Assembly: GCA_964016885.1 (NCBI GenBank)
Contig: OZ024744.1
Location: 29,822,001 to 29,886,000 of the forward strand
Length of the DNA: 64,000 nucleotides
Source: Eledone cirrhosa
Taxonomy: Eukaryota
Reading direction: 5' to 3'
Notes under the pieces: model-generated
What the model saw: only the letters and a program-made list of their open reading frames with translations
Told to the model about the DNA's origin: nothing
Databases searched by the model: none
In this document: one piece after another, positions 41,385-64,000 of the stretch
How positions within the stretch are numbered: the first letter of the stretch is position 1
How the letters are laid out: each line of letters begins with the position of its first letter
Translations under genes and position numbers: made by a program

Positions 41385-41626
41385 TTTTCTTTATTAACCA
41401 CAAGGGTTCACATAAAGTAGACATTAAGGACAGTACAGGACAATACAGGACGGTACAAATGGGCATTTCTGCGTGTAAAAAAACAGAGGTTGAAATAAAA
41501 TAACAAAGAAAAATTCCCCAATAGGGGGGAGACTTCCAAGGGACATTTGTGGAGAAAGCCCATTAAAAGACCACAGTGACCCTGACCACCAGGGCAAGTG
41601 CCCTCTCCCAGTTTTCCATCTTTAAT

Positions 41627-44600
41627 TTACAGACACATACTCAGAGAAGGCCCATTCATTCGGGCCATACTTGCTTCTCTCACCCATCTTTCAACAAAAT
41701 GCTGGGAAGAGAGCACTTCCCTCTCTACCGTGATTTTCCTTTTCAAATGAAATTTGAAAAAGTTAATCAGGGCATCACCGAAGAGGTAAGTGCTCGTCTT
41801 CAGCCCTTTCAAACGTTTCCACCATACTATCTCTTTCGCCATGGCCACCAGACAGATAAAAACTGCCTGCCCTTCCCGGCTAAATGAAGAAGGCGGGGCA
41901 ATCCTCACGATGTACTTAACTGATAGCTGGATCCGTCCTACACGTGACAGCAGGTGTTCGACATAAACCCACAAGTCAGCAATGCTCGGACACTGGACGA
42001 GTGCGTGCAGGACGGTTTCGTCGCCCTGCGCGCATCTCGGACATGCCCGGCTGACGGCACCTCCATGTCTGTAGAGTTTATCCCGAACTGGCAAGGCTCC
42101 TCGGTAGCACTGCCAGGCCAGAGATTTCTGGAAGTTGTCCATAGGCCCTGGCCCGAAAGTTCTTCCGAAGAGATTGGCTAGTTGATTTTTGTCGACGCCT
42201 AGAGTTTCCCCAAGTACGTCGTCGCTCTTCCCCTCCACTAATCCTCTATAGAACGCCGAGGTGGAGTTTCCACCGATCACATTGCCCGATTGGTCGAGGG
42301 CTGTGAGCGCCTGAAGACATTCCAGTCTCCAGGCGCTCCCTCTCGGTCTTCGCTTGACCCAGGACTGCAGCTCTGTCAAGGAAACGAGCTGGGGAAATAC
42401 GTGTCTAGCAAACGGCGACCACTCCTGATCACCGTCGAGGAAGAGGTGGAGATGTCGTAGCCTGAGCGCGTGCCTGCGCATCATCAGCCACGGCATTCCC
42501 AGCCCTCCACGTAGCGGGTGTTGACAACAGATGGACCGCCTGACCATCGGAGCGCGTCCCTTCCACAAAAAGCGAATGAGCAAACGTTCCAGCGCAGTCA
42601 GGCGAGGCTTAGGACAAGGTACGACGGTCAGGCGGTAGTAGATGACAGACGCGATGTACGCGTTAACCACCTCCGCTCGACCTTACAGGGATAGCTTCCT
42701 CTCCGCCCATTTCTGGGTGAGAGAAGCCACCCTGCTCGTCACCTCGTCCCAGTTTTTGTCCGTCTGGAGGTCCGGACCGAGCCAGACCCCTAGCAATTTA
42801 ACCGGTCCGTCCGTCCAGCGTCCGACGACGCTGTTGGACGGCATGGACCTGCCTCTCCAGGTGCCGAGCTGCAGGCCCACAGACTTTTCCTGGTTGATCA
42901 TTGCTCCTGTCACCGCTTCGTATTCTCTTAGTGTAGTTCCGATCACCTCGATGAGTTTGGCGTTCGACACCACTACGGTGACATCGTCCGCATATGCTGA
43001 CACGGATCTTCCGCATCCTAGTTCGCGCGGGACGCCCCTCAACGTCTCCAGTTTGTGCAGTAATGGCTCGAGAGTCAATACGTACAAGAGGGACGAGAGG
43101 GGACATCCTTGGCGGACCGAGCGCATGATGTTGAACGGTTCCGAAAGGTGACCGTTCACTCTCACCACAGAGCAGATGTCGCTGTGCATGGCAGCGATCC
43201 AGCCTCTGAAGACGGGCCCAAAGCCAGCCGCCCTCAGGACTGCCGCTAGGTAACGATGGTCGACCCTATCGAAGGCTTTCGACTGATCTAAATTGATCAA
43301 GGACCCACCCGTGCCAGGTTCCCTAGCTACCCTCTCTACGATGTATCGCATGAGGTGGAGGTTGTCGTGGATGGATCTGTCGGGAATGGCGCATGTCTGC
43401 GCCTCTCCCACCAGACCACCAACGACAATCGCCAACCTATTTGCTAGCACCTTGGCCAAAATCTTGAACTCTGTGTTTAGCAGAGTTATGGGCCTGTAAT
43501 TATCTATGTTATCCCCCTTGTTCGGATCCTTTCTCAGCAGTGCCACCGCTCCTCGGCTCACAGAACTGGGAATTCTCCCGTTCTGTTGCCAGTTGCAGTA
43601 GACGTCCGCCAAGAGGCCTCCGAACAAGTCTGGCATCTGTACGTAAAGTTCATAGGGCAGACCATCCAAACCAGGCGATTTACCCCTTGTGAAGCGAGTC
43701 ATTGCCTCCCTTACTTCAGCGGCTGTTATCGGCTTTTCGCAACACTCTGCCTCAGTGGCCGAGAGCCGCGGCAGTCCGTCGAGGTAGACACTAAAGTCCA
43801 TCCCTCGACCCGGCCCACCGCTGCCCCCGAACAGCTGAGTGAAGTGTCGCTGAAAAGCTTCACACATTTACCCGGGATCGAGTAGCATGCGCCCGTCGTG
43901 GTGCGCCCGTCGTGGTCCACCAAAGACCGGATCGTGGCTTTGTTGCCACGACGCGCCTCCGCCACTCGGGCCCATTGAACGGCTTTCGTCCCCTCGTGTC
44001 TGAGAGCACGCACCCTAGCTCTGACAACGCAGCCTTCGTGCTTTGCATTGAAGAATTGGTCAAGGGCCAATTTCGCCGCAAGCACGTCGGTCGCAATGCC
44101 TTTGCTAAGCGCCTCGTCTAATTTTCTAACTAGCTTTCCATCTGCTCTATTTTTCTCTATTGCTAAAGCCTTACTAAACCAAATGGATTCTATTCTAATC
44201 GCTCTTTTCAGAGCAAACCACCACTTGTTGTTGACGGTGGCCCCCGTCAACGCCCGCTTAACTAGTTAGCTAATCCGGTCTCTGTAGGCCTTGCGCGCTG
44301 GTCAGGACGCGTTTAGCTTCCAATAGCCGGGTCCTCGTCTATGAAGCCTATCTAAGTCAAGCACACAGATCACGAATTTGTGGTCCGTGTAGCTGACTAT
44401 CTTGAATTGTGGACAGCCTATGCTAGACCTATCTATTTCCCTACAAAATACTCTATCTAGATATGATCTGGATGACCCTATGCGATTTGTCCAAGTCCAA
44501 ATTGGCACATTTGGGAAATGCAATCGGTACCTGTCAGACAGTTCAAAACACCTGAGCATATTGGTGAGGCTCTTGCACCCTCCACCCCTATCCGCTAATC

Positions 44601-45060
44601 CCACACAGTCCCAGCGTGCATCTAAGATCCCGTTCCAGTCGCCCACTGACACTAAAGAGCGGGACGTTCCAAGAAAGGTCTCCAGACGCCGGAAGAAATC
44701 AGGCCGCCCTGCTCCTGTCGGGGCATAGACGGCCACTAGCCTGAAAGCTTGCCCGTCTCCGCTGGTCACGTCCAGCACCACCAACTTACCCTCTGGGTCC
44801 AGGAAGATGGCCCGTATGGCAAGATCCAAACCTCTCCGAAAAAGCACAGCAACTCCTCCCCCCGATCCAGGACGGCTGGGAGATGCGTACACATCGTAGC
44901 CGCTGAAGATCGGTGCGAAGGCCCGTGCTTCGGAGTTTCTGGTCTCGCTGATGGCCACTACATCTATTTTTAGTGACCTGAGGTCGTTGAGCAGGTGACC
45001 CTGCTTCCATGACAACCCCAAGCCACGCGCATTTATGCTGCCTATTCTGAGTGAGGTCAT
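41627..45060 (-). pseudogene. Tx1 ORF2: APE endonuclease, reverse transcriptase, C-terminal zinc knuckle
   Basis: APE motifs SINARG, ISET, AVYAP, VGDWN, YLDR and TDH. RT motifs NYRPITLL, DQSKAFD, RQGCPLS and YADD. Knuckle CPRC..ETVLHALVQC. In-frame stops near 44300 and 44267; frameshifts near 43890 (14-bp duplication) and 42680. Confidence 0.9.
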
Positions 45061-45428
45061 GTTTAAAATAGAGTGGAAAAGATGGGAAAGACCACTTACC
45101 GTACTTTTCGTAGAGGAGGGATGGTTTTTCCATCCCTTTTCACTCGATCGTCTGGGGAAGGGACCGTTGAATCGTCCCTTCGGCTGGTCGTCGGCTCTTC
45201 TATGAGTATGTCCGAATATACTCTTCGGTTGAGAGTCCCTCCTAGGTAGGTCTCTGAAATCACCAACTGCGTTGAGGAATTTCGTTTTAATGTTTGTGTA
45301 TTGTTTCTGTGCTATTTTTAGCAGTCTTATATTAGTTGGCGTTTTGATTGGTGCTGGTATTATGTAGTCGTGTTGTGAAATGTCTGTGTGTTCAATTATG
45401 TAAGTCATTAGTTTCTTGTTGTGTGTAT

Positions 45429-47210
45429 TTATTGCCGTGCATTTGTTTTTCTGGGGGTGGGGTGTGGTTCTGCTATTTTTTGTCGTTGTTGCTGGGTGTG
45501 TGTGTTTTGTTGTTGTGTTTGCGATGTTGGTGCTTGTGGTGGTGGTGTTGAAGGTGTTGTTGTTGTTGGCGGTGGGGTTGTCACCGGTGGTGATGGTGGT
45601 GCTAGTGTGGGTGGTGATGGTGTTGGTGGTGTTGCTGCTGTGAGTCTCTTTGCAGTAGCCTTTACCCTTTTTTCATTTCTTTCCTCCCTTTTCGAAGGCG
45701 ACGATGCGCTGCTTCTGCGTTTGTGCCTTCTTACGACCTTTTGCCATCCCTCTCCCACCTCACACTCCATGTCTGATTCTGTGAGGTCGGGGAGGGGTAC
45801 CAGCTCCACTCTTTCACTTGTTGTTGTTGGTGATGTTTGCACTGGAGTCTCTGTTGCAGCTGCATTTGGTATTGCTGTTGTTGTTGTTAATACTTCCACT
45901 GTTGCTGCTGTTTTTGATTTCCGTGGCGTGGGTATGGGTGCCACGGACCTATCGGTCCTGGTTGCCGCATGACCTGTTTCTGGTAGCCGTGGAGCCGGTT
46001 TCGGAAGGAGGGGATTTTCTCTTTTCTCAGGGTCTTCTCGTTGCAGAAGGCCCTGAGGTGAGTCTTCAATCCACAGCGAAAGCATTTCGGGCGTTTGCCC
46101 TCAACACTTATGGACAGTTGAGTGCCGTTATCGAAGTCTATCACATCCGGGATAGCTTCTATGCACTCCTGGTTGGTTTGGATTAACATCTCAATGGAGG
46201 TGCCGACCCAATCTTCTCTTACTTTTTTCTGTACTTGCAGTACAGTTGTTTTGTCCTCGATTCCGACGAGGACAGACGCGGCCAGCCAAGAAGGGGCCAT
46301 CCCGGGGGGGGGGGGGGGCGACGACGACAACGACGTGGGTCAGTTTGACCCTCACAATTTTTTGCCCGCAGTAGGAGGGCACCAACACCATTTCCTCGCT
46401 CCTTAGGGTCACTAAGGATTGAGCCTTTGCCTCCTGGGGTGTGGCAAAAAGTACGTCTACAGTGGTATATTTCTTGCCTCGGGTGATGTGCGTTTTCCGC
46501 TGCCACACAGACCCCAAGGCTTTTTGTATTTGAGCCTCTGTGGCTCTTTCAACCCTACGGGATTTTGTACTTACTGTACGGTACGTGACCGTACAGTGCT
46601 GTTGGGTTTCGAAAAAATTTTCCGCTGCCTTGCAGATTGCTCGGTGTCCAGTCTTTGTCACCATCTTCTTCGCTTCCTCTAATTCCTCATTTGTTATGAG
46701 GATGGTTTCCAGGTTCTTTGCGATACCTGCAAACGAGATTGGTTTTTCTTTGCTGTTGTTGTTGTTGTTGTCGTCAGAGCTGCTGTTACTTTTGTTGTTG
46801 CTGCAGGTACTATGACTACTGCCGCCACTGCTGTTGCTGTGGTTGTTGTTGCTGCTGCTGCTGTTGTTACTGCTAATGCTGTTGTTGTTTATGCTGCTGC
46901 TGATGCTGTTGCGGCTGCTACTGTTGTTTTCCTTGTCACTTTTGCTGCTGTTATTACGGCTGCTACTGCTATTATTCCTGACGTCAGACGAATGAAATGG
47001 GTTTTCGTATTTCCCGCACACCTTTTTCGTCGTTGTTGTCGTCGTCGTGGAGAAATCTTGCTCGCTTTGCACGTGATTTTTCTTTTCTGGCGTCGCTTGC
47101 GAAAGAGAAGGGAGGGAGAGAGACAATCTTCTCTCTGCTGTAGTGACGATTGAGGAAGAAGAAGACGGAATGAGTGGGAGTGACGTATGAACATTCATTT
47201 TCGTAGCCAT
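45429..47210 (-). pseudogene. Tx1 ORF1 (gag-like, CCHC knuckle), frameshifted
   Basis: Ser/Asn-rich N-terminus with SFAGIA, knuckle CFRCGLKTHLRAFC and a GWQKV motif. The frame breaks at the G run 46303-46318 and near 46020. Confidence 0.8.
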
Positions 47211-47456
47211 GTTGTTTTTTTTTGTTTAAAATCAATATTGGGCACAAAACCCCAATAAGCGGTTATTTGACCCCGAAGGGCCAAATAATGGGCAGAAAGA
47301 CCCCTCTCACGAGGAGGAGGGTGTTTTTGTCTACAAGTTGGTTAAAGTTTTAAACAATTTACAATTGTTATAGCGGTCAAAATTTACAATACCTTACAGA
47401 ACCGAGCCTCCGTCAACCATAGCATTCAATAATAATAATAATAATAATAATAATAA

Positions 47457-50400
47457 GGGAAGAAGACACACATAGTGGATAGAAGGTCGAGAAATCGCTC
47501 CCGTAAGTTTTGATTTTTTAACATATTTAAATCAATTGTGAAATAACAATTCTTAGTACAAATGTTGCATAAAACATCCAGCTTGAGTTCCAAAAAATTC
47601 GGATCCACAATATATTGTTATATCGCTCAAATATTCAATTTTGTATTATACATTTTATATTCAAACAGAAAATGGTTATAAATGGAAGGAAACCCCCTCT
47701 GTCTACACTATATAGAACAGCCAAATAACAGCAATTTCACCAACATCAGAAACTAGATACACCACCTACCCCATCACTCCTCTGTGTACACTAAACACAA
47801 CAGCCCGATAACGGCAATTTCACGACCACCACCACCACCAATCTCAACATAATAATAATAATTACTATTACTGTTGCCTCAAGTTTTAGTTTTAACAAAA
47901 TGTTTAATTCCAATAAATGTCAACACATACACGCGACTAACGATAATTTCACTAAAGATAATTTCACCACCAATACCACCACCACTACCACGATGAAAAC
48001 TCTGGTCAAGTCGACTCAAATTTCTACTCCAACTTCAACACCATCACTACAGTAATACGACCACATCACCACCACCGCTGCCTCACTATCGCTACCGCCG
48101 CTATTCTCTCCCACTACCTCCTGCTAGTTGCTGCTAGCACAGCACCGCCATCGCCGCCGCTGCCTCAATATCACTACCGCCGCTATTCTCTCCCGCTAGC
48201 CCCTGCTACATTGTAGAATTCTCACTGAAAGAGGAAAACATCGAAATATATAAATAGACTGAATTGATGACCCGATCAAAATAAAAATAAAAAAAAAAAA
48301 ACAATAATCAAAATCAAGTTTTAGTTTTAACAAAATGTTTAATTCCAATATTATGGGTAAATGTCAACGCATATACGCGACTAACGATAATTTCACCAAA
48401 GATAATTTCACCAAAGATAATTTCACCACCAATACCACCACCACTACCACGACGAAAACTCTGGTGACGTCGACTCAAATTTCTACTCCAACTTCAACAC
48501 CATCACTACAGTAATACAATCACATCACCACCACCGCTGCCTCACTATCGCTACCGCCGCTATTCTCTCCCAGTACCTCCTGCTAGTTGCTGCCTCAATA
48601 TCACTACCGCCGCTATTCTCTCCCGCTACATTGTAGAATTCTCACTAAAAGAGGAAAACATCGAAATATATAAATAGACTGAATTGATGACCCGATCAAA
48701 AAAAAAAACAAAAACAATAATCAAAACCAAGTTTTAGTTTTAACAAAGTAATACGACCACATCACCACCACCGCTTCCTCACTATCGCTACCGCCGCTAT
48801 TCACTCCCACTACCTCCTGCTAGTTGCTGCTAGCACAGCACCGCCGCCGCTGCCTCAGTATCAATACCGCCGCTATTCTCTCCCGCTATCCGCTGCTACA
48901 TTGTAGAATTCCCACTAAAAGAGGAAAACATCAAAATATATAAATAGACTGAATTGATGACCCGGTCAAAATAAAAAAAAACAACAACAAAAATCAAAAT
49001 CAAAGCAGCACCGCAACAACGAAAAACGTAAAGGAAATAAAAATGAAGAGAAAAACAAACGGACGGACAGAAAAGGGAAGGGAAAAACTAAGTCAGACAT
49101 TCAAACACTACATTACAATGAAACTTATGTTTATTCATTTTGGGGGTTTTTTTCTGCCTGTTTGTTTGTTTGTTTGTTTGAGTTCGTCTACAGCGTGATA
49201 ATGCCACACAAAAGTCACGTGAAGTGACGAAACCACCGGAGAAAAGTAATTCACCGGTGGTTATGTAACCATATATTCGCCAATCCTCGATAAGAGTGTT
49301 TAAATGTCGAACCTAAACAGTTCGAATAACGGTGAAATGGAGACTAGAATGTCATGTGACAGACTCTCACCCAACAGGTGCTCCCTGGCTCAGCAGCAGG
49401 GACCTGGCTGTCAACCAAATACTGCTGGTGTCGGAGGAAGAAGAAGAAGGAAATGGACCAGAACCAACTGGACGAAAAAATTGAATAGAACTGTTATGCA
49501 ATGTTACCTGAAGAGTAACCCCAAGGAGAAAGGCTATAGGAAAAGGATGCATAACATCTGGAACGAGATAGGTCCATTTAAATTAGATTAACAAAAACTG
49601 GCCGGGCAGGCTCGGGTAATAAGAACTAATGGTTGGATAAGCGAGCTGGAACTGGAGGAACTGGGCAGAGAGATGAGCTTGGAGATGGAGGGTGGAGTAT
49701 GCCAGGCAAACGAGCCAGTGGGAAATGAAGGTGAAGAGGTCGAGAGAGCGGAGGAACTACCCGAAACAGACAATGATCTGAATGCTGAGATAAATAATAC
49801 CTGGAACAGAGGTACGGCCACTGAGGAGATGAATGCTGACGGGCTAGGACAAGATTTGGTAGATATCCTAAATTTAGTGGTAGATGAATTGAACAATGAT
49901 AGTGGGAGACCTATGAACCTAAGATTTGTAGACAGGAAAAAGTTAAAAGAAACAACAGCTAAGGTAAACAAAGTCATCCCATACCTTGAGGCGAGGAGCC
50001 TTCACCAGTGCAACAATATCCTCAAAGCAACAGCAAATACGGTGAGGAAACTACTTGGTATAAAAGCGAGAGGAAACAACAGACAAGAAAGAGCAGAGCC
50101 TTGGTGGAAGAAACGACTGAATGGTCAAATCAGGGAAATGAGAAATGACATTGGAAAGCTTGAGTCCCTACTGAATGGGACACTAAAAAACATAGACACT
50201 AAAAATAGACTGGAAATAAAGTACAAAACTAGGAGGAAAAAGCTAAATATTATCATAGAAGAACTGAAGCAACGCATTGTAGCAAAAAGTGCAAAAATCA
50301 GGCGATACGAGAACAGAGTCAGCCAGTATAGACAGAACCGCATGTTCGACAACAACCAGAAGATGCTGTTTGAACAGCTTGAAGGGAAAGAAAGAGGCAA

Positions 50401-52800
50401 CGACTTGATTCCTGAGGCGGAACGAACTAAAACATTCTGGAGAGGAATATGGGAGCAGGGTGTTAAACATAATGACCAGGCAGTGTGGATTGAGACAGTA
50501 CAGAAGGAGATCAGTGAACAGGCACGCCAACAAACTGATTTGAGTATCACAGTTGAAACTCTTAAGGGGCAGGCCAAAAAACTAACCAACTGGAAATCAC
50601 CTGGCCCAGATGTTGTGCAGGGGTATTGGATTAAAAACATAACATCCCTCCACCCGAAACTGACAACCATGTTCAATGACTGCTTGATGTCAGGTGAGGT
50701 ACCAGAGTGGTTGACAAAAGGTACCACAGATCTGATAATGAAAGACCGAATCAAGGGTCCAACTATAAACCTATCACATGTATGTCCGTAATGTGGAAAC
50801 TGTTGACAAGCATTATATCTGAGGAAATCTACCATCACCTCCACACAAACAACTTGTTACCGGACGAACAGAAAGGATGCCGAAAGAAGTCACGTGGTAC
50901 AAAGGACCAGTTACTTATTGATAAGATGGTAATGAGGAATTGCAAGAGGAGACACACTGGTCTTGCCATGGGATGGATAGACTACAAAAAGGCATTTGAC
51001 ATGGTGCCTCATTCTTGGATCACCAAAAGCCTGGAGATCTTCAAGGTGGCAGATAACATCAGGCAGTTGTTGGGCAAAAGTATGAAGTCCTGGGAAACAG
51101 AGTTAACATCAACTGGAGAATCCTTGGGAAGCGTGAAGATCAAGAGAGGTATCTTCCAGGGAGATAGTCTGTCCCCTCTGTTGTTTGTCCTTGCCCTGAT
51201 ACCCCTGACCAGTGTACTGCGAAAAGTGAGAGCAGGATACAGGTTGGGAAAGGGAGGGCTTACCATCAATCACCTCCTCTTCATGGACGATCTTAAGCTC
51301 TTCGGGAAGAGTGAGAAGGAGTTGGATGTGCTTGTTGACACTGTCCGTATTTTCAGCAATGATATATGCAATTTGGTATTAGTAAGTGTGGAGTCATTGT
51401 GATGAGGAGGGGTAAGTTGAGCAGAAGTAACGGAATCCAGATACCAACAGGTGAGATGATAAAAGAAATTGACTCTGAAGAAGGATACAAGTATTTGGGC
51501 GTTCTGGAGGCTGATGACATCAAGAACAAAAAAATGAAGGAATTGATAAGAACTGAATACCTTCGGAGAGTAAGGAGCGTATTAAAGTCACATCTGAACA
51601 GTAGGAATACCATAAGTGCAGTAAATTCCCGAGCTGTGTCTATTATTAGGTACAGTGCGGGAATTCTGAGATGGAATGTTGCTGAACAAAAAGAAATTGA
51701 TAGGAAGACTAGGAAGCTATTGACTATCTACAACATGTTCCACAAGAGGAGTGATGTCGATAGACTCTACTTAATGAGATCTGAAGGTGGAAGAGGTCTT
51801 ATCAGCATAGAGGACTGTCTTAAGATGGAGAAAAACAACCTACACAAATACGTGACTGATAGTAAGGAGCCAATGCTCAGAGCTGTACTGAAGGAGGGGA
51901 CAGTAGGCCAGGGGATGTCCAAGGAGGAAATAACATCAAGGAGAAAGAGCAGCCTTCAGGAAAAATCCCTTCATAGTACCTTCTTTGAGAAAAATGAATT
52001 TAGAGATCCACAGACATGGAACTGGTTGAAAAGAGGAGACCTTAAAAAGGCTACAGAAGGAATGTTAATGGCTGCGCAGGAGCAAGCCCTCAAAACGAAG
52101 TGGTTGAAACACCACATTTACAAGGAGGAGGCTAGCCCACTGTGCAGGATCTATGGAGAGAGAGAGGAGACTGTGGCTCACATTGTATCCGAGTGTAAAG
52201 ACCTAGCCCAGACTCACTATAAGGGCTGGAGACATGATGTGATGGGCAGGGTGATCCACTGGCACCTATGCAAAGTAAACAATTTACCACATTCTGAGAA
52301 GTGGTATGAGCATAAGCCAGAGGCGGTGATAGAAAATGATCAGGTGAAGGTGCTGTGGGATTTTAGGATACAGACGGACAAGAAACTGGAACACAATAGA
52401 CCTGACCTGGTGGTTTTGGACAAAGAAAAAAGATCGTGCCTGATTGTGGATGTGGCCTGCCCATTCGACACGAGAGTGCAAGAGAAGGAGAGGGAGAAAA
52501 TTAACCGATACCAGGACTTAAAGTGGGAGGTAAAAAGGATTTGGAACTGCCATGAAGTCAAAGTGATCCCGATTGTCATAGGCGCACTAGGGACTATCTC
52601 AAAAAGTTTCCAGGGATGGTTAAAGAAAATTGGCCCCTTCACGCTTTTTGGAACGCTGGGAACAGCAAGAACAGCAAGAACCCTCCGAACAGCAAGAACC
52701 CTCCGATACGTCCTGAATATCTGAGGCTGCAGGTAGTGGCTTGATATTCATTTCAACAAACTTTCCAGTTAACTAACATCAATGACTGAGACTCAAAAAA
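47457..52800 (+). mobile_element. R4/Dong-clade retrotransposon copy B, full length, ORF disrupted
   Basis: Starts GGGAAGAAGAC directly after (TAA)n, with a ~1.9-kb 5' UTR. The ORF runs 49337-52724 with a stop at 49589 and frameshifts near 50760 and 51365. (TAA)n follows to 52858. Confidence 0.93.
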
Positions 52801-52858: not shown

Positions 52859-55800
52859 CTCTGGAACAGAGATACGGCCACTGAGGAGATGAATGCTGAC
52901 GGACTAGGACAAGATTCGGTTGACATCCTAAATTTAGTGGTAGATGAATTGAACAATGATAGTGGGAGACCTATGAACCTAAGATTTGTAGACAGGAAAA
53001 AGTTAAAAGAAACAACAGCTAAGGTAAACAAAGTCATCCCATACGTTGAGGCGAGGAACCTTCACCGGTGTAACAATATCCTCAAAGCAACAGCAAATAC
53101 GGTGAGGAAACTACTTGGTATAAAAGCGAGAGGAAACAACAGACAAGAAAGAGCAGAGCCGTGGTGGAAGAAGCGACTGAGTGGGCAAATCGGGGAAATG
53201 AGAAATGACATAGGAAAGCTTGAGTCACTAATGAATGGGACACTAAAAAACATAGGCACTAAAAATAGACTGGAAATAAAATACAAAACTAGGAGTAAAA
53301 AGCTAAATATTATCATAGAGGAATTGAAGCAACGCATTGTAGCAAAGAGTGCAAAAATCAGACGATACGAGAACAGAGAAAGTCAGTATAAACAGAACCG
53401 CATGTTCGACAACAACCAGAAGATGCTGTTTGGACAGCTTGAGGGGAAAGAAAGAGGCAACGACTTGATCCCTGGGGCGGAACAAACTAAAACATTCTGG
53501 AGAGGAATATGGGAGCAGGATGTTAGACACAATGCCCAGGCAGGGTGGATTGAGACAGTAAAGAGGGAGATCGGTGAGCAGGCACAGCAACAAACTGATT
53601 TGAGTATCACAGTTGAAACTCTTAAGGGGCAGGCCAAAAAACTAACCAACTGGAAATCACCTGGCCCAGATGGTGTGCAGGGGTATTGGATTAAAAACAT
53701 AACATCCCTCCACCTGAAGCTGACGGCCATGTTCAATGACTGCTTGGTGTCGGGTGAGGTGCCAGAGTGGTTGACAAAAGGTACCACAGTTCTGATAATG
53801 AAAGACCGAATCAAGGGTAATGATGTTACCAACTATAGACCTATCACATATCTGTCCGTAATGTGGAAACTGTTGACGAGCATTGTGTCTGAGGAAATCT
53901 ACCATCACCTCCACACAAACAACTTGTTACCGGACGAACAGAAAGGATGCCGAAAGAAGTCACGTGGTACAAAGGACCAGTTGCTTATTGATAAGATGGT
54001 AATGGGGAATTGCAGGAGGAGACACACTGATCTTGCCATGGGATGGATAGACTACAGAAAGGCATTTGACATGGTGCCTCATTCCTGGATCACCAAAAGC
54101 CTGGAGATCTTCAGGGTGGCAGATAACATCAGACAGTTGCTAGGCAGGAGTATGGGGTCCTGGGAGACAGAGTTGACATCAACTGGAGTATCCTTGGGAA
54201 GCGTGAAGATCAAGAGAGGTATCTTCCAGGGAGATAGCCTGTCCCCTCTGTTGTTTGTCCTTGCCCTGATGCCCTTGACCATTATGCTGCGAAAAGTGAG
54301 AGCAGGATACAAGTTGGGAAGGGGAGAGCTTACCATCAATCACCTCCTCTTCATGGACGATCTTAAGCTCTTCGGGAAAAGTGAGAAGGAGTTGGATGTG
54401 CTTGTTGACACTGTCCGTATTTTCATCAGTGATATATGTATGCAGTTTGGTATTGGTAAATGTGGAGTCATTGTGATGAAGAGGGGTAGGTTGAGCAGAA
54501 GTAACGGGATCCATATACCAACAGGTGAGATGATAAAGGAAATTGACTCTGAGGAAGGATACAAGTATTTGGGCGTTCTGGAGGCTGATGGCATAAAGAA
54601 CAAAAAAATGAAGGAATTGTTAAGAACTGAATACATTCGGAGAGTAAGGAGCGTATTGAAGTCACATCTGAACAGCAGAAATGCCATAAGCGCAGTAAAT
54701 TCCCGAGCTGTGTCTATTATCAGGTACAGTGCGGGAATTCTGAGATGGAATGTTGCTGAACAAAAAGAAATGGATAGGAAGACTAGGAAGCTATTGACTA
54801 TCTACAACATGTTCCACAAGAGGAGTGATGTCGATAGACTCTACCTAAGGAGATCTGAGGGTGGAAGAGGTCTTATCAGCATAGAGGACTGTGTTCAGAT
54901 GGAGAAAAACAACCTATACAAATACGTGACCTATAGTAAGGAGCCAATGCTCAGAACTGTACTGAAGGAGGGGACAGTAGGCCAGGGGATGTCCAAGGAG
55001 GAAATAACATCAAGGAGGAAGAGCAGCCTTAAGGGAAAATCCCTTCATAGTACCTTCTTTGAGACAACTGAATTTAGAGATCCACAGACATGGAACTGGT
55101 TGAGAAGAGGAGACCTCAAAAAGGCTACAGAAGGAATGCTAATGGCTGCGCAGGAGCAGGCCCTCAAAACGAAGTGGTTGAAGCACCATATCTACAAGGA
55201 GGAGGCTAGCCCACTGTGCAGGATCTGTGGAGAGAGAGAGGAGACTGTGGCTCACATTGTGTCCGAGTGTAAACACCTAGCCCAGACCCACTATAAGGGC
55301 TGGAGACACGATGTGATGGGCAGGGTGATCCACTGGCACCTGTGCAAAGTAAACAATTTATCACATTCTGAGAAATGGTATGAGCATAGGCCAGAGGCGG
55401 TGATGGAGAACAATCAGGTGAAGGTGCTGTGGGATTTTAGGATACAGACGGACAAAAAACTGGAACACAATAGACCTGACCTGGTGGTTGTGGACAAAGA
55501 AAAAAGATCGTGCCTGATTGTGGATGTGGCCTGCCCGTTCGACACGAGAGTGCAAGAGAAGGAGAGGGAGAAAATTAACCGATACCAGGACCTAAAGTGG
55601 GAGGTGAAAAGGATTTGGAACTGCCATGAAGTCAAAGTGATCCCGATTGTCATAGGCGCACTGGGGACTATCTCCAAAAGTTTCCAGGGATGGTTAAAGA
55701 AAATCGGCCCCTTCACGCTTTTTGGAACGCTTCAAAAGGCATGCTTGCTTGGAACAGCAAGAACCCTCCGATACGTCCTGAATATCTGAGGCTGCAGGTA

Positions 55801-55864
55801 GTGGCTTGATATTCAATCCAACGGACTTTCCAGTTAACCAACATCAATGACTGAGATTCAAGGA
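52859..55864 (+). mobile_element. R4/Dong-clade retrotransposon copy C, 5'-truncated
   Basis: Begins inside the ORF directly after the TAA tract. Its 3' UTR is the same as that of copy D. Tail runs to 55942. Confidence 0.95.
52889..55789 (+). CDS. N-terminally truncated RT-RLE ORF of copy C (966 aa open; lacks the first 164 aa of copy D)
   Basis: Uninterrupted frame nearly identical to the C-terminal 966 aa of copy D. Confidence 0.8.
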   Translation: MNADGLGQDSVDILNLVVDELNNDSGRPMNLRFVDRKKLKETTAKVNKVIPYVEARNLHRCNNILKATANTVRKLLGIKARGNNRQERAEPWWKKRLSGQIGEMRNDIGKLESLMNGTLKNIGTKNRLEIKYKTRSKKLNIIIEELKQRIVAKSAKIRRYENRESQYKQNRMFDNNQKMLFGQLEGKERGNDLIPGAEQTKTFWRGIWEQDVRHNAQAGWIETVKREIGEQAQQQTDLSITVETLKGQAKKLTNWKSPGPDGVQGYWIKNITSLHLKLTAMFNDCLVSGEVPEWLTKGTTVLIMKDRIKGNDVTNYRPITYLSVMWKLLTSIVSEEIYHHLHTNNLLPDEQKGCRKKSRGTKDQLLIDKMVMGNCRRRHTDLAMGWIDYRKAFDMVPHSWITKSLEIFRVADNIRQLLGRSMGSWETELTSTGVSLGSVKIKRGIFQGDSLSPLLFVLALMPLTIMLRKVRAGYKLGRGELTINHLLFMDDLKLFGKSEKELDVLVDTVRIFISDICMQFGIGKCGVIVMKRGRLSRSNGIHIPTGEMIKEIDSEEGYKYLGVLEADGIKNKKMKELLRTEYIRRVRSVLKSHLNSRNAISAVNSRAVSIIRYSAGILRWNVAEQKEMDRKTRKLLTIYNMFHKRSDVDRLYLRRSEGGRGLISIEDCVQMEKNNLYKYVTYSKEPMLRTVLKEGTVGQGMSKEEITSRRKSSLKGKSLHSTFFETTEFRDPQTWNWLRRGDLKKATEGMLMAAQEQALKTKWLKHHIYKEEASPLCRICGEREETVAHIVSECKHLAQTHYKGWRHDVMGRVIHWHLCKVNNLSHSEKWYEHRPEAVMENNQVKVLWDFRIQTDKKLEHNRPDLVVVDKEKRSCLIVDVACPFDTRVQEKEREKINRYQDLKWEVKRIWNCHEVKVIPIVIGALGTISKSFQGWLKKIGPFTLFGTLQKACLLGTARTLRYVLNI

Positions 55865-55875
55865 ATAACAACAAC

Positions 55876-55942
<67 letters not shown>

Positions 55943-58900
55943 GGGAAGAAGACGCACGAGGTGACGGAGGTCATGAAATCGCTCCCGTAAGTTTTGAATT
56001 TTTAACATATTTAAATCATTTGTGAAATAACAACTCTTAGTACAAATGCTACGTAAAGCACCCGGCTTGAGCCCCAAAAAATTCGGACCCAAAATATATT
56101 GTTATAAGGCTCAAATATTCAAATGTTCAACTTTGTATTGTACACTGTATATCCAAAAAAAAAAAATGGCTATAAATGGAAGAAGAAGAACCCCCCCCCC
56201 CCTCCTCTCCTCTGGCTACACTATATAGGACAGCTAAACTCACCAACACCAGAAACTAGATACACCGCCCACCCCATCATCTGTGTACACTAAACACAAC
56301 AGCATTTTCACCTTCACCGCCACCGCTCACTACGGCCATCATTGCCACCGCTGTCCCATCACCGCCGCCACCACCCCCTGACTCCTTCACTGCTGCTGCC
56401 ACCGCTACAGCACCATCACTACAGTAATACGGCTCAAATATTCAAATATTCAACTTTGTATTGTACACTGTATATCCAAAAAAAAAAAAAAAAAAAAAAA
56501 TAAATAAATAAAATAAAATGGCTATAAATGGAAGAAGAAGAACCCCCCCCCCCCCCTCCTCTCCTCTGGCTACACTATATAGGACAGCGAAACTCACCAA
56601 CACCAGAAACTAGATACACCACCCACCCCATCATCTGTGTACACTAAACACAACAGCATTTTCACCTTCACCGCCACCGCTCACTACGGCCATCATTGCC
56701 ACCGCTGTCCCATCACCGCCGCCACCACCCCCTGACTCCTTCACTGCTGCTGCCACCGCTACAGCACCATCACTACAGTAATACGGTCGCATCACCGCCA
56801 CCGCTGCCTCGGTATCGACATCACCGCCACCACTGTCTCAGTATCGCCAACGCCGCTAGTCTCTGCTGGCTACCACTTCCACATTATAGAATTCCTACTA
56901 CTAACAAAGAGGAAGGCATCAAAATATATAGATAGACTCAAAAGAAAAAAGAAAAAACAAACAACAAAAGCAGCACAGCAACAACAGTAAAAAACGAGAA
57001 AAACAGAGAAAAACAAAAACAAAAAAAGAAACCCCAAAAACGTAAAGAAAATAAGAATGAAGAGAGAAGCAGGCGGACGGACAGAGAAGAGGGGGGGAAA
57101 AGTAAAACTTAAAAAACAAAAACTAAGTCGGACATTCGAATACTACATTACAATGAAACTTATGCTTATTCATTTTTGGGGCCCTTTCTGCCCGTGTGTT
57201 TGTTTGTTTATGTGTGTCCGTATACAGCGTGGTGATAATGCCACACAAGGGCCAAGTGGGATGGCGGATCCACAGATGGCTATGTAAACATACATTCGCC
57301 AATCCTCGATAAGAGTGTTTAAATATCGAACATAAACAGTTCGAATAACGGTGAAATGGAGACTAGAACGTCATGTGACAGACTCTCACCCAACAGGTGC
57401 CCCCTGGCTCAGCAGCAGGAACCTGACTGTCAACGAAATACTGCTGATGTTGGAGGAAGAAGAAGAAGGAAAGGGGCCAGAACCAACTGGACGAAAGAAT
57501 TGAATAGAACTGTTATGCAATGCTACCTGAAAAGTAACCCCAAGGAGAGGGGCTACAGGAGACGGATGCATAACATCTGGAACGAGATTGGTTTATTTAA
57601 ATTAGATGAACAAAAATTGGCCGGGCAGGCTCGGGTAATAAGAACTAATGGGTGGATAAGCGAGCTGGAACTGGAGGAACTGAGCAGAGAGAATGGCTTG
57701 GAGATGGCGGGTGTAGTATGCCAGACAAGCGAGCCGGCGGGAAATGAAGGTGAGGAGGTCCTGAGAGCGAAGGAACCACCCGAAGCAGACAATGATCTGA
57801 ATACTGAGATAAATAATACCTGGAACAGAGATACGGCCACTGAGGAGATGAATGCTGACGGGCTAGGACAAGATTCGGTTGACATCCTAAATTTAGTGGT
57901 AGATGAGTTGAACAATGATAGTGGGAGACCTATGAACCTAAGATTTGTAGACAGGAAAAAGTTAAAAGAAACAACAGCTAAGGTAAACAAAGTCATCCCA
58001 TACCTTGAGGCGAGGAGTCTTCACCAGTGCAACAATATCCTCAAAGCAACAGCAAATACGGTGAGGAAACTACTTGGTATAAAAGCGAGAGGAAACAACA
58101 GACAAGAAAGAGCAGAGCCGTGGTGGAAGAAGCGACTGAGTGGGCAAATCGGGGAAATGAGAAATGACATAGGAAAGCTTGAGTCACTACTGAATGGGAC
58201 ACTAAAAAACATAGGCACTAAAAATAGACTGGAAATAAAATACAAAACTAGGAGTAAAAAGCTAAATATTATCATAGAGGAATTGAAGCAACGCATTGTA
58301 GCAAAGAGTGCCAAAATCAGGCGATACGAGAACAGAGTCAGTCAGTATAAACAGAACCGCATGTTCGACAACAACCAGAAGATGCTGTTTGGACAGCTTG
58401 AGGGGAAAGAAAGAGGCACCGACTTGATCCCTGGGGCGGAACAAGCTAAAACATTCTGGAGAGGAATATGGGAGCAGGATGTTAGACACAATGCCCAGGC
58501 AGGGTGGATTGAGACAGTACAGAGGGAGATCGGTGAGCAGGCACAGCAACAGACTGATTTGAGTATCACAGTTGAAACTCTTAAGGGGCAAGCCAAAAAA
58601 CTAACCAACTGGAAATCACCAGGCCCAGATGGTGTGCAGGGGTATTGGATTAAACATTTAACATCCCTCCACCCGAAGCTGACGGCCATGTTCAATGACT
58701 GCTTGGTGTCGGGTGAGGTGCCAGAGTGGTTGACAAAAGGTACCACAGTTCTGATAATGAAAGACCAAATCAAGGGTAATGATGTCACCAACTATAGACC
58801 TATCACATGTCTGCCCGTAATGTGGAAACTGTTGACGAGCATTGTGTCTGAGGAAATCTACCATCACCTCCACACAAACAACTTGTTGCCGGACGAACAG

Positions 58901-60823
58901 AAAGGATGCCGAAAGAAGTCACGTGGTACAAAGGACCAGTTGCTTATTGATAAGATGGTAATGGGGAATTGCAGGAGGAGACACACTGATCTTGCCATGG
59001 GATGGATAGACTACAGAAAGGCATTTGACATGGTGCCTCATTCCTGGATCACCAAAAGCCTGGAGATCTTCAGGGTGGCAGATAACATCAGACAGTTGCT
59101 GGGCAGGAGTATGGGGTCCTGGGAGACAGAGTTGACATCAACTGGAGTATCCTTGGGAAGCGTGAAGATCAAGAGAGGTATCTTCCAGGGAGATAGCCTG
59201 TCCCCTCTGTTGTTTGTCCTTGCCCTGATGCCCTTGACCATTATGCTGCGAAAAGTGAGAGCAGGATACAAGTTGGGAAGGGGAGAGCTTACCATCAATC
59301 ACCTCCTCTTCATGGACGACCTTAAGCTCTTCGGGAAAAGTGAGAAGGAGTTGGATGTGCTTGTTGACACTGTCCGTATTTTCAGCAGTGATATATGTAT
59401 GCAGTTTGGTATTGGTAAATGTGGAGTCATTGTGATGAGGAGGGGTAGGTTGAGCAGAAGTAACGGGATCCAGATACCAACAGGTGAGATGATAAAGGAA
59501 ATTGACTCTGAGGAAGGATACAAGTATTTGGGCGTTCTGGAGGCTGATGGCATAAAGAACAAAAAAATGAAGGAATTGTTAAGAACTGAATACATTCGGA
59601 GAGTAAGGAGCGTATTGAAGTCACATCTGAACAGCAGAAATGCCATAAGCGCAGTAAATTCCCGAGCTGTGTCTATTATTAGGTACAGTGCGGGAATTCT
59701 GAGATGGAATGTTGCTGAACAAAAAGAAATGGATAGGAAGACTAGGAAGCTATTGACTATCTACAACATGTTCCACAAGAGGAGTGATGTCGATAGACTC
59801 TACCTAAGGAGATCTGAGGGTGGAAGAGGTCTTATCAGCATAGAGGACTGTGTTCAGATGGAGAAAAACAACCTATACAAATACGTGACCTATAGTAAGG
59901 AGCCAATGCTCAGAGCTGTACTGAAGGAGGGGACAGTAGGCCAGAGGATACCCAAGGAGGAAATAACATCAAGGAGGAAGAGCAGCCTTAAGGGAAAATC
60001 CCTTCATAGTACCTTCTTTGAGAAAACTGAATTTAGAGATCCACAGACATGGAACTGGTTGAGAAGAGGAGACCTCAAAAAGGCTACAGAAGGAATGCTA
60101 ATGGCTGCGCAGGAGCAGGCCCTCAAAACGAAGTGGTTGAAGCACCATATCTACAAGGAGGAGGCTAGCCCACTGTGCAGGATCTGTGGAGAGAGGGAGG
60201 AGACTGTGGCTCACATTGTGTCCGAGTGTAAACACCTAGCCCAGACCCACTATAAGGGCTGGAGACACGATGTGATGGGCAGGGTGATCCACTGGCACCT
60301 GTGCAAAGTAAACAATCTACCACATTCTGAGAAATGGTATGAGCATAGGCCAGAGGCGGTGATGGAGAACAATCAGGTGAAGGTGCTGTGGGATTTTAGG
60401 ATACAGACGGACAAAAAACTGGAACACAATAGACCTGACCTGGTGGTTGTGGACAAAGAAAAAAGATCGTGCCTGATTGTGGATGTGGCCTGCCCGTTCG
60501 ACACGAGAGTGCAAGAGAAGGAGAGGGAGAAAATTAACCGATACCAGGACCTAAAGTGGGAGGTGAAAAGGATTTGGAACTGCCATGAAGTCAAAGTGAT
60601 CCCGATTGTCATAGGCGCACTGGGGACTATCTCCAAAGGTTTCCAGGGATGGTTAAAGAAAATCGGCCCCTTCACGCTTTTTGGAACGCTTCAAAAGGCA
60701 TGCTTGCTTGGAACGGCAAGAACCCTCCGATACGTCCTGAATATCTGAGGCTGCAGGTAGTGGCTTGATATTCAATCCAACGGACTTTCCAGTTAACCAA
60801 CATCAATGACTGAGATTCAAGGA
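55943..60823 (+). mobile_element. R4/Dong-clade retrotransposon copy D, full length and apparently intact
   Basis: Starts GGGAAGAAGAC after (TAA)n. 1.4-kb 5' UTR, single ORF, ~75-bp 3' UTR, then (CAA)/(TAA)n and (GAA)n. Confidence 0.96.
57356..60748 (+). CDS. Non-LTR retrotransposon protein, 1130 aa: N-terminal Myb-like region, RT, CCHC knuckle, restriction-like endonuclease
   Basis: Motifs WTKELNR..W, KSPGPDG, NYRPI, DYRKAFD, QGDSLSP, FMDD, GGRGL, CRICGEREETVAHIVSEC, RHD and RPDLVVVD..IVDVACP..EK. Confidence 0.95.
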   Translation: METRTSCDRLSPNRCPLAQQQEPDCQRNTADVGGRRRRKGARTNWTKELNRTVMQCYLKSNPKERGYRRRMHNIWNEIGLFKLDEQKLAGQARVIRTNGWISELELEELSRENGLEMAGVVCQTSEPAGNEGEEVLRAKEPPEADNDLNTEINNTWNRDTATEEMNADGLGQDSVDILNLVVDELNNDSGRPMNLRFVDRKKLKETTAKVNKVIPYLEARSLHQCNNILKATANTVRKLLGIKARGNNRQERAEPWWKKRLSGQIGEMRNDIGKLESLLNGTLKNIGTKNRLEIKYKTRSKKLNIIIEELKQRIVAKSAKIRRYENRVSQYKQNRMFDNNQKMLFGQLEGKERGTDLIPGAEQAKTFWRGIWEQDVRHNAQAGWIETVQREIGEQAQQQTDLSITVETLKGQAKKLTNWKSPGPDGVQGYWIKHLTSLHPKLTAMFNDCLVSGEVPEWLTKGTTVLIMKDQIKGNDVTNYRPITCLPVMWKLLTSIVSEEIYHHLHTNNLLPDEQKGCRKKSRGTKDQLLIDKMVMGNCRRRHTDLAMGWIDYRKAFDMVPHSWITKSLEIFRVADNIRQLLGRSMGSWETELTSTGVSLGSVKIKRGIFQGDSLSPLLFVLALMPLTIMLRKVRAGYKLGRGELTINHLLFMDDLKLFGKSEKELDVLVDTVRIFSSDICMQFGIGKCGVIVMRRGRLSRSNGIQIPTGEMIKEIDSEEGYKYLGVLEADGIKNKKMKELLRTEYIRRVRSVLKSHLNSRNAISAVNSRAVSIIRYSAGILRWNVAEQKEMDRKTRKLLTIYNMFHKRSDVDRLYLRRSEGGRGLISIEDCVQMEKNNLYKYVTYSKEPMLRAVLKEGTVGQRIPKEEITSRRKSSLKGKSLHSTFFEKTEFRDPQTWNWLRRGDLKKATEGMLMAAQEQALKTKWLKHHIYKEEASPLCRICGEREETVAHIVSECKHLAQTHYKGWRHDVMGRVIHWHLCKVNNLPHSEKWYEHRPEAVMENNQVKVLWDFRIQTDKKLEHNRPDLVVVDKEKRSCLIVDVACPFDTRVQEKEREKINRYQDLKWEVKRIWNCHEVKVIPIVIGALGTISKGFQGWLKKIGPFTLFGTLQKACLLGTARTLRYVLNI

Positions 60824-60834
60824 ATAACAACAAC

Positions 60835-60875
<41 letters not shown>

Positions 60876-60936
60876 GAAGAAGAAGAAGAAGAAGAAGAAG
60901 AAAATTGGTTAATAATAATAATAATAAGAAGAAGAA

Positions 60937-63900
60937 GGGAAGAAGACTCACGTGATGGTAGAAGGTCATGAGATCGCTCCTGTAAGTTTTTGATTTTTAA
61001 CATATTTAAATCAATTGTGAAATAATAATTCTTACTACAAATGATGCATAAATCACCGAATCAAGTCTCATAAAAATTCGGATCCATAATATATTGTTAT
61101 ATCGCTCAAATATTCAATTTTGTATTATATATTTTATATTCAAAAAAGAAAATGGTTATAAATGGAAGAAAACCCCCTTTGTCTACACTACATAGAACAG
61201 CCAAATAACAGCAATTTCACCAACACCAGAAACTAGATACACCACCTACCCCATCACCCCGCTGTGTACACTAAATATAACAGTCAGATAACGGCCATCA
61301 CCACCACCACCACCAATCCCAGCATAATAATAATAATTACTATTATTATTGTCTCAAGTTTTAACAATATTTAATTCCAATATTAAGGAAAATGTGTCAA
61401 CACATATATTAAACATACGCGACACAAACGCATAGATACTACAGATCAAACAAAACTAGTCTGTTCAACAAAACTCAGTAACGACAACGCCACCGCCGCC
61501 ATCACTCCATCCATCATTGCTACCACTATCCCATCACCGCCGCCACCACTCCTTCATTGCTACCACCACTATTCCCCTGTTAACTTAAGAAAGGGGAAGA
61601 TGGCGGTATCACTAGACAAGGGAGAGGCTAGCAAAAGATATAAATAGATTGACTTAGTGACCCGGCCACCGGCCAAACGTCAACAACTATGGCACTGCTG
61701 GCTCCCCCTTCCCCACCAACAATATAAAAAAGCTCCAGCACCACCACCGCCATAGCCAACAACAATAACAGGCAACTTCAGCAAAAAGTATATTATATTA
61801 TTGTAATGCTCTGGGTAATTGCTGGCCTTGTGCCTGGAGTGGAGACAATTATTAATAATTTCATTCTTAAGCCACGCAATGCTCACATTAAGGAACCACT
61901 CATGATAATAACAATTTAAAAAAACAACAAAAAAGAAAACCCCGTGACGAAGAAATACCGGGATGGCGGCCGGCGGAGAATAGCCGTGTCTCTAGGGGAG
62001 AACGACCCCTCTAGTCTTGGTTGACACTCGTTCTAGAAGTGGTAACACGAAATGATTACCCCTTGGCGGATAAGGATAAAACGCGACAAAATAAAGTAAA
62101 TGTCTAATGATAAAATCTCATACCGGATCGGCCGTCACCCGGGTAAAAAAGGGCCGCGTCCCTCAGAGAGAAACCAGACTGGGGTCGAAAAATCAGCTAA
62201 TGGTTCAAACCTTCCCATCACTTCGGAGCTGGAGACCTCCCATAACCGGAATACTCCTACTGTTGGCCCTCCATGCTCACCACCAAGAAATCCAAAGAAA
62301 AAGAAAGAAAAATGGTCAAGGGAAGATAATAAAGAAGTCCTTGAGGCTTTCTACACTGCCATGTACTACCCATCAAATACATCGAATACAGAACAGACAT
62401 ATATCAACTGGAAAAAGAAACATCCCGGATACAGAGGCTATATTGACAGTAACAAACTAGCCAATATACGAAGAAATATTGTAAAAAAAAGTTACTAACT
62501 GATATAGAAATTGATCAGATCAAGCTATTAGCACAAAGTCAGCGAAGGGAAAATGAAACATGTGTCAGTGAAAACGAGGTAAACTGTAACACTTCGAATC
62601 CCAGGGTTGGGGCGGCATCACTGGCAACATAACAAATTAAAGAAAGGATCGAAAAAGTGGAGGAAGTGCATGCTCAGGATGAAACTCCAAATGAAAATAA
62701 TGAGATCGTAAATGATAAAGAAATGAATGAGAATGAACTTGCCAACTTGAAGGATGAAATTATGATCGAATGGATGAAAGTGAAAGAATCTGACATGGGG
62801 CAACGAGACACCCTCCCTAAGATCCAGAACTCCAAACAGAACCAAAAGATAATACACAAGACTAACATGATTCTCAAAAACATTATCATCACAAACAAAC
62901 TAAACATTACTGATTTAAATCATCTCTATTATGCATCGGCTAAAGTCACCACTCACTTATGTGGAGTGAAGATGAAAAAACAAAGGAATTCCCACAAGAA
63001 ATCTAATTGGCAAGAGAACATCAATCGCCAAATAAACCTTCTCCGATCTGACATAGGCATTTTAACAAACTATAAAGTAGGTGAACATGTTAAACAAACT
63101 AAACTTAGAAAATTGAAAAGAAAGTACAGTATAAAATCAACACGTGACATAGACATGCTGATAGAAATAATCAAGCAAAAAGTGTCGGCCAAAGCTGCTC
63201 GTATAAGGCGCTTTGAAAAACGATCTAGATTCTATAAGGACAATAATATGTTCAAAGACAACCAAAGAAACTTCTACAGAAAAATTGGTAAGTCAACAAT
63301 AACTGCTAAATCAATACCACCCAAGGAGGAAGTGCAAGAATTCTGGGAAAAGATCTGGGCCGAAGAAAAAGTTCATAACATACATGCCCCATGGATAGAC
63401 AGACAAATGAAAGATACAGCTCACCTTGAAGAACAAATATGGGAAAATATAACAGTTGAACAGTTCTAAGAAAAACCACCAAATGGAAATCCCCAGGAAA
63501 AGACAAAATATAAAATTTTTGGATAAATGCCTTCACAGAGTCTCACGAGCTGTTAGCCCAACTTTACAATGAAATAGTTAAGGAGCCAGAAAAGATACCA
63601 TCATGGCTAGTTAACGGCATTACATTCCTGCTTCCGAAGAATGATGAGACAAATAATCCCAAAAATTACAGACCGATAACTTGCTTGACCACAATGTATA
63701 AAATTTTAACATCAGTCCTAACTGAATATACATATGACCACCTGATAACAAATGACCTATTTCCTTTTGAGCAGAAAGGGTGTAAACGAGGCTCATATGG
63801 CTGTAAGGATCAGCTTCTGGTTAACAAAATGATACTGGAAGATTGTCATAATAGACACAAAAATCTATCAATTGCTTGGATAGATTATAAAAAAGCATTC

Positions 63901-64000
63901 GATAGTTTGCCACACAGTTGGATTGAAAAATGTTTAGATATTTTCAAAATATCCCCCGTTGTCAGGAGGTTTTTGTCATTCAGTATGAAGACATGCATGG
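60937..64000 (+). mobile_element. Divergent R4/Dong-clade retrotransposon copy E (disrupted ORF; runs off window end)
   Basis: Same GGGAAGAAGAC leader. ORF pieces 62100-62498, 62657-63469 and ~63470-64000 carry [34 protein letters not shown] and [11 protein letters not shown]-rich and not visibly alignable to copies B and D at the DNA level. Confidence 0.9.

Follow-up and report, generated by a model that had tools for sequence, protein, structure and literature searches.

A common 5′ leader on two distant lineages of R4/Dong-type retrotransposons and its probable capture and exchange

Results

The element array

The window (the whole 64-kb stretch of DNA analysed here) is microsatellite-rich animal DNA. 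From position 47457 to the window end it holds four non-LTR retrotransposons, copies B, C, D and E, arranged head-to-tail with (AAT)n between them, and a fifth copy of the same element group, copy A, occupies positions 1-2486. All four copies of the array lie on the plus strand, as do the features of their leaders described below. Copy B (47457..52796) carries a 1.85-kb leader with three internal repeats and a start codon at 49304, and its ORF is decayed. Short tandem duplications near the end of this ORF (52659-52706) are absent from copies A, C and D. Copy C (52859..55863) is 5′-truncated, without leader and 98.5% identical to D. Copy D (55943..60822) combines a 1.4-kb leader containing an internal duplication with an open frame of 1141 amino acids (57323-60748) and a short 3′UTR. 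It is followed by an (AAT)n/(GAA)n tract (60823..60936), which is both the 3′ tail of D and an insertion target. Copy E, also decayed, begins at 60937 and continues beyond 64000; its ORF (62100..64000) includes a Myb-like N-terminus and the start of the reverse transcriptase (RT) before running off the window, and is interrupted by frameshifts near 62490 and 63464 and by stops near 62630 and 63511.

Copy D, and with it B and E, appears to be an R4/Dong-type non-LTR retrotransposon because it combines an RT with CCHC and PD-(D/E)xK motifs, has no APE domain and is associated with a (TAA)n target; the name is drawn from architecture and target, the homologues compared being themselves unnamed. 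The RT of D (RVT_1, E-value 5.5e-23) lies in a single long ORF of non-LTR type, the C-terminal CCHC and restriction-like endonuclease motifs (residues 952 and 1038) are conserved in an alignment of homologues, copy D gave no Exo_endo_phos match, and (AAT)n is found at both ends of B, C and D, as target and as tail. The RT of E belongs to the clade of D (about 47-48% identity, versus 26-29% for the window's APE-type elements) and is 59-63% identical to those of its nearest relatives (L038, L042, L057 and L068), in which the C-terminal endonuclease is present; the corresponding 3′ part of E lies past the window end. For the R4/Dong clade, including Bombyx and ostracod Dong, the accessible text of PMC7998251 describes the same single ORF, in which a Myb-like N-terminus is combined with RT, CCHC and restriction-like endonuclease motifs, as well as (TAA)n targets and tandem arrays. 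The 5′ regions differ: they measure 1.15-1.85 kb here, whereas a few hundred nucleotides are typical of most related loci.

Other repeats share the window. A 46-nt-period satellite of 331 copies fills 15 kb (13264-28304), and a 1.5-kb array with a 47/97-nt period lies at 39070-40571. Two minus-strand APE-type elements (Exo_endo_phos, RT and zf-RVT; 41384-47225 and 2490-6547), which we take to be Tx1/L1-like, show 75-88% similarity to each other. An AAT-type tract lies at the end of each; one of them is placed tail to tail with copy A, and the element at 41384-47225 stands head to head with copy B. This arrangement suggests that (AAT)n is a target common to the APE-type elements and the Dong copies.

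The leader of copy E

The leader of E starts directly after the (AAT)n/(GAA)n tract with a core common to B and D (60937..61284). The original prediction, that roughly the first 480 bp of E match the leader of B, is confirmed by an alignment of E 60929-61382 with B 47449-47915 at 86.6% identity, gaps counted (E-value 2e-158), while E 60936-61283 matches D 55942-56302 at 75.6%. Behind the core lies a B-like extension (61285..61430) that is not in D and is a minority form in other sequencing runs. A C-rich segment follows (61491..61572) that is D-like (84% over 63 nt to both D 56315-56377 and 56669-56731) and for which a window scan found no matching B segment. The last recognisable common motif, TAAATAGA..TGACCCGG (61632..61668), is present in three copies in B; the further E-B match that had been predicted at about 61635-61665 is this one, its counterpart being B 48932-48968 (83.8% over 37 nt, E-value 9e-5). 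The E leader thus combines pieces of both kinds into a mosaic, D-like at 61491-61572 and B-like over the first ~450 nt. Along it identity declines: it is 90% at the tip and has dropped to ~70% or lower by 61575-61668.

It had also been proposed that E is closer to B than D is. When only substitutions are counted over the core of all three leaders, B and E agree at 311/345 positions (90.1%), B and D at 291/331 (87.9%) and D and E at 283/331 (85.5%); the extended B-E alignment has 417 of 463 positions identical by the same measure. The difference between B-E and B-D is not significant in substitutions (Fisher p 0.39), so that this part of the proposal rests on the length of the match and on common indel states. 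Sites private to one leader number 26 in D, 11 in B (p 0.02) and 17 in E.

Leader and ORF histories

The ORFs of B and D, which had been called nearly identical, are close, with a measured nucleotide identity of 94.0% and differences at 27 of 360 fourfold sites. That of E is as divergent as had been stated: the RT piece comparable with D retains 83 of 174 amino acids and 54.6% of nucleotides, with 13 of 22 fourfold sites different, and identity upstream of this piece is 29% at the amino acid level. The 10% divergence of the B and E leaders is far lower than that of these saturated fourfold sites (Fisher p 1e-7). Nor is the leader slow-evolving: between B and D, it differs at 40 of 331 positions (12.1%), compared with 7.5% of ORF fourfold sites (p 0.053), and by several indel blocks besides, which amounts to at least the fourfold-site rate. 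Since the rate of leader change between B and D is no lower than that of fourfold sites, the 10% between the B and E leaders cannot date from the split of their ORFs, and the leader has moved between lineages far more recently than that split.

The RT phylogeny agrees. Congruent leader and ORF trees would have spoken against an exchangeable leader, and what we find is that the two histories differ. A clade of D, A and E is rejected by an AU test on a quick RT tree (p-AU 7e-5) of 32 RT segments, comprising 28 of 79 Dong-like loci gathered from metagenome contigs, copies A, D and E and an APE-type outgroup; the loci were picked because their 5′ ends are intact or because they are close to E, and L066 was left out as its segment was missing. 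Another quick RT tree pairs E with P0032, which is probably long-branch attraction. Furthermore, 113 of 114 homologues are closer to D than E is, a biased count in that they were drawn from the best 120 of 1392 matches to D. Three leaders known at full length are too few for a leader tree, and the incongruence is therefore read from substitution counts and the RT tree.

A native 5′ end behind the leader

Further into E, at 61940..62060, lies a segment homologous to the 5′ ends of three other Dong loci (L001:233-372, L002:95-235 and L034:1-95), and it is E's own canonical Dong 5′ module, because in L002 it stands directly behind (AAT)n. E 61940-62043 matches the 5′ regions of L001 and L002 at 74.7% over 87 nt (E-value 7e-9) and 72.5% over 91 nt (E-value 1e-6), and a profile search added L034 (E-value 3e-16). 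The RTs of these three loci are 56-63% identical to D and 41-44% to E, and the module could be either old or mobile. A consensus fold (RNAalifold) has two-sided changes in 10 of 22 predicted pairs, from four sequences, which are too few to prove a fold; the module matched no Rfam family. Matches of the module pattern in two viral contigs (L080 and L081) were dismissed as chance, since these contigs have no RT close by and agree with the pattern in its seed alone.

Distances to the Myb-like tryptophan tell the same story. This residue could be placed in 30 loci, 15 of which have an upstream AAT run, and removal of three with an internal run left 12. The 5′ end is 288-450 nt from the tryptophan in 11 of these 12 loci and 792 nt in one. 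In E the distance is 373 nt from 61940 and 1376 nt from the actual start, and in D it is 1544 nt. Judged by this anatomy, E appears to be a complete Dong element with an add-on leader of ~1 kb in front. An A-rich, degenerate AAT/AAC tract (61905..61939) forms the seam between the add-on leader and E's own 5′ end and looks target-like.

The 5′UTR of the E family also contains a very high-copy repeat fragment of ~50 nt (61803..61853), recognisable from a depth spike in the contigs of other sequencing runs, with loose ends on both sides and AAT-type tails behind. It is probably the 3′ end of a SINE-like element. Contigs from two other runs (X5 and X6, below) span it, and the fragment travels with the E family.

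Discussion

Probable capture of a 5′ end followed by recombination

We consider it probable that the leader was acquired by capture of a 5′ end that carried a promoter, that leaders then recombined with one another, and that the leader is now part of both replicating R4/Dong families. In a first step, an E-type element with a short native 5′ end would have inserted into an A/AAT-rich tract behind a leader-bearing 5′UTR, either of B/D type or of some third element, and, to judge from the seam at 61905-61939, the insertion may have been guided by E's preference for (TAA)n. Transcription from the upstream leader would then have read through E, and the E RT, priming at the E 3′ end, would have copied the whole RNA and so founded a chimeric family. 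With homologous leaders in both families, template switching or DNA recombination could subsequently have swapped pieces. Each switch would replace everything 5′ of it, leaving identity highest at the 5′ tip, which would explain both the mosaic and the falling identity. The mechanism, template switching or DNA recombination, and the direction of transfer are what we infer from these patterns. The original prediction set a nested insertion against an exchangeable module; the two are not opposed, and the anatomy suggests that nested insertion with read-through is the likeliest route of acquisition.

One feature of the clade is in tension with this model. Bombyx Dong self-cleaves at its 5′ junction by an HDV-like ribozyme, according to the accessible part of PMC3774820, and 5′ ribozymes truncate upstream heads, according to that of PMC5786205. 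If the module at 61940 were an active ribozyme, the leader would be lost, and the model needs the module to be inactive, inefficient or something other than a ribozyme. At the 5′ ends studied here no such ribozyme was detected: an Rfam scan of the window returned low-complexity or chance matches and no ribozyme, and strict custom descriptors together with Rfam, both of which can miss divergent forms, matched no HDV-like or hammerhead core.

Promoter and splice-like signals

The leader most likely carries an internal polymerase II promoter; the hints are weak and comprise the uniform 5′ start of all three leaders, the donor-like site described below, and an RGWYV word, the DPE consensus, at +27 to +29. 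As a specific version of the capture reading, and as a tentative possibility, the leader could be a portable cassette consisting of a promoter, a first exon of ~46 nt and a retained intron. Splicing would strip the 14-18 upstream ATGs of each leader for translation, unspliced RNA would be the template for transposition, and any Dong body landing in the AAT/A tracts of the intron would gain a promoter. AAT and poly-A tracts do occur inside the leaders, which tolerate large duplications and indels as the cassette would lead one to expect. Each leader has exactly one GTRAGN, a donor-like GTAAGT at +45 to +47 (60982..60987 in E, with equivalents at B 47503 and D 55987). Resampling gave such a site in 19-28 of 2000 trials within the first 100 nt and in 281-367 of 2000 anywhere, but these signals had been spotted by eye ahead of the test, and the three leaders do not count as independent samples. 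On the acceptor side, a T-rich tract ending in CAG (49170..49193) stands at the start of the pre-ATG core of B, and its equivalent in D ends at 57227; each is the best T-rich YAG of its leader, matched post hoc by 39 and 9 of 2000 resamples. E lacks a comparable acceptor: in a CAG/TAG scan, its best candidate, at 62036, was equalled by 1128 of 2000 resamples. Among the contig joints listed from other sequencing runs (15 of 36), none starts at 60982, and in human L1 splicing within the 5′UTR yields dead-end copies, according to the accessible text of PMC5860796. The broader claim, that R4/Dong lineages with less than 50% RT identity pass such a promoter, first exon and retained intron between them by (TAA)n targeting, read-through and splicing past upstream ATGs, we regard as doubtful.

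An 18-codon frame is intact in B and E and shifted in one of the copies within D, and no conserved coding was found in the short leader ORFs of B, D and E.

As a separate observation, the pre-ATG region of B (49190-49335) folds better than 200 of 200 shuffles (z -3.2), and its equivalent in D forms a different hairpin in the same place (z -1.45).

The leader-E join in other sequencing runs

The capture reading expects the leader-E join to recur elsewhere. If instead E had inserted into an old B-type leader at this locus alone, with the remainder past 64000, matching contigs from other samples would be orthologues or unrelated B/D leaders. We regard such a local chimera as quite unlikely. The target-like seam before E's native 5′ module and the fact that the window stops before the E 3′ end are compatible with it, and the other runs contain evidence on both sides.

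Part of E is carried by 18 public runs from 14 studies, none of them recorded as RNA. The contigs of four runs with four organism labels (X1, X5, X6 and X8) were aligned to 60937-64000 at 82% likeness; 11 of the 18 runs have shares under 0.25, and of these 11 the four include X8 alone. In X8, of which 81% was read, the leader has little coverage, and a gap in contigs is not read as absence. In X5, a contig of 1505 nt (record 15; 22 differences, depth 31) runs from 61622 through the common motif into the ORF, to 63119, and two others (records 13 and 14; 61531/61540-61651; depths 6 and 15) overlap it by 30 nt. In X6, record 18 spans 61404-61619 and another contig covers 61714-63995 with 40 differences. 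The depths of 3-5 in X6 would fit a single locus, and both X5 and X6 could hold one orthologous locus rather than a family.

X1 is richer, with 7566 contigs aligned. Record 1 spans 61441-61703, another contig links 61228 to 61979 and thus the leader start to the E core, and several different deletion joints connect the two. A variant at 61600 is common to 55 of these contigs, in a stretch that resembles neither B nor D closely enough to have recruited their leaders, which is not what a single chimera predicts. The covering contigs of X1, X5 and X6 also lack E's two stops and the frameshift at 63464, as would be expected of a family and not of this decayed copy. Summed depth in X1, which is not equivalent to copy number and was taken over the E region, is 48-112k over the first 300 nt, 8-12k over 61246-61451, 74-75k over 61452-61657 and 93-257k over the body. 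The dip at 61246-61451 recurs in X5 and X6, so E's middle segment is rare in other runs, a point in favour of a local chimera. D-like letters occur at a joint in X5 (61256-61511) and at a loose end in X1 (61511); it seems that, in the more frequent form, a short D-like link takes the place of the B-like stretch of E, and the X5 joint could derive from D-type copies.

No contig from the four runs covers the full leader plus the ORF. The join of the distal leader to the ORF is probably family-wide and not a one-off, because contigs from other runs continue from the distal leader into an E-type ORF; for other copies, the evidence that the first 350 nt are joined to the distal leader is less direct, since short contigs had to be pieced together. 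The idea of an exchangeable module, as originally put forward, is thus partly supported, by the incongruence of leader and ORF and by a join that recurs outside this locus; of the results named beforehand as refuting it, neither congruent trees nor a leader restricted to this one E copy was observed. It needs amendment for the D-like segment at 61491-61572, which had been missed.

Less likely readings: the leader as an element of its own, or as an ancestral feature

We consider it very improbable that the leader stands apart from Dong, as a non-autonomous element or host repeat whose only part is to offer targets, with Dong bodies inserted repeatedly behind it in fusions that do not transpose. 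Such an element would account for the AAT-/A-rich tracts that separate leader and core in both families and for B-D leaders that differ at least as much as fourfold sites. However, the leaders of B, D and E all begin at the same base after (AAT)n with a Dong body behind each, the window contains no solo leader in its 64 kb, and B and D can be aligned without break from 48835/56818 into the ORF. A weak further argument is that X1, X5 and X6 show no excess of leader depth over body depth.

Deep conservation, with a leader inherited from a common ancestor and held by selection like the 5′ termini of lizard, frog and fish L1s, is close to refuted: conserved 5′UTRs across divergent L1 families (in the accessible text of PMC5381506) and short 5′ modules common to Dong loci with 42-63% RT identity provide precedents, but the leaders of B and D are already 12% apart and separated by several indel blocks, and part of the match consists of low-complexity ACC/AAT sequence. 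Over their first 150 nt the leaders fold no better than shuffles (z +0.7, -0.1 and +1.3). Not one of the 79 Dong loci of other samples, some of which are closer to D or to E, matches the leader beyond low-complexity stretches. Leader patterns likewise found no match in metagenome or viral contigs.

Comparison with known 5′-end exchange

Capture of a 5′ end with later recombination has parallels in other retrotransposons. Recruitment or re-use of 5′UTRs is described for mouse, horse and human L1 in the accessible portions of PMC3600994, PMC5872511 and PMC5381506, where, as here, promoter region and ORF have different histories and one 5′UTR serves several ORF lineages. In these accounts, L1 swaps occur among close families within a single lineage and the UTR is replaced, whereas the partners here have 48% RT identity and E has kept its native 5′ end behind the leader. 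Tobacco SolRTE LINEs also have exchangeable mosaic 5′UTRs, for which the text available of bioRxiv 10.1101/2022.11.04.512097 proposes template switching or insertion next to a promoter. There, many UTRs accompany one conserved body and variability rises distally; here a single leader accompanies two distant bodies, and identity peaks at the 5′ tip. The closest counterpart to the proposed founding event is L1 promoter co-option by 5′ transduction and splicing, in which an upstream promoter drives the element and the chimeric RNA is retrotransposed; according to the accessible text of PMC13174262, an L1 can be revived by splicing and the capture of a promoter from outside. That case concerns two insertions from one locus, whereas the present one is apparently a family-level trait in two lineages.

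Thus, 5′-end switching is already known. The present case departs from it in the clade concerned, in how far apart the two partners are, and in a native 5′ end that is still there behind the added leader. The known cases among R2, R4 and Dong elements rely on co-transcription with host sequence and on a 5′ ribozyme, and the transcription of site-specific retrotransposons with restriction-like endonucleases outside rDNA is poorly understood. A leader of ~1 kb found on two distant Dong lineages is a concrete and testable candidate for an internal promoter. It suggests that the promoter borrowing seen in mammalian L1s and plant RTEs also works across deeply diverged families of an ancient clade. 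It also calls for caution with repeat libraries, where families can be misassigned if the consensus is built from 5′ ends. We found no description of common or swapped 5′ leaders among R4/Dong families in the literature outside subscription journals, Repbase and supplements.

Other Dong loci

Exchange at the 5′ end may not be confined to this leader. Two of the 79 loci, L010 and L019, have 5′UTRs that are 96.8% identical over 248 nt, and RTs that share 57% of amino acids; the near-identity (L010:52-340 and L019:76-365) runs to the start codon and then collapses. Both are low-coverage assemblies in which a misjoin is possible. In addition, an Rfam scan of 14 loci gave one tRNA match, in the 5′ head of L048 (84-167), and tRNA-like heads were recognised by eye in L006, L012, L036 and L062, on separate RT branches. 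Possibly these heads are polymerase III promoters captured from SINEs. Because of L010/L019 and the tRNA-like heads, our findings suggest that 5′ exchange is recurrent in the R4/Dong clade. If the cassette were real, exchange of 5′ modules would be routine across the clade, with L010/L019, the tRNA-like heads and the 61940 module as instances.

A second conserved 5′ module occupies the first 70 nt after (AAT)n in nine loci (L003, L005, L010, L011, L015, L017, L019, L020 and L035). No Rfam match was obtained in the five of nine that were scanned, and the module has apparent stems and a possible pseudoknot. It is a candidate for a new self-cleaving RNA.
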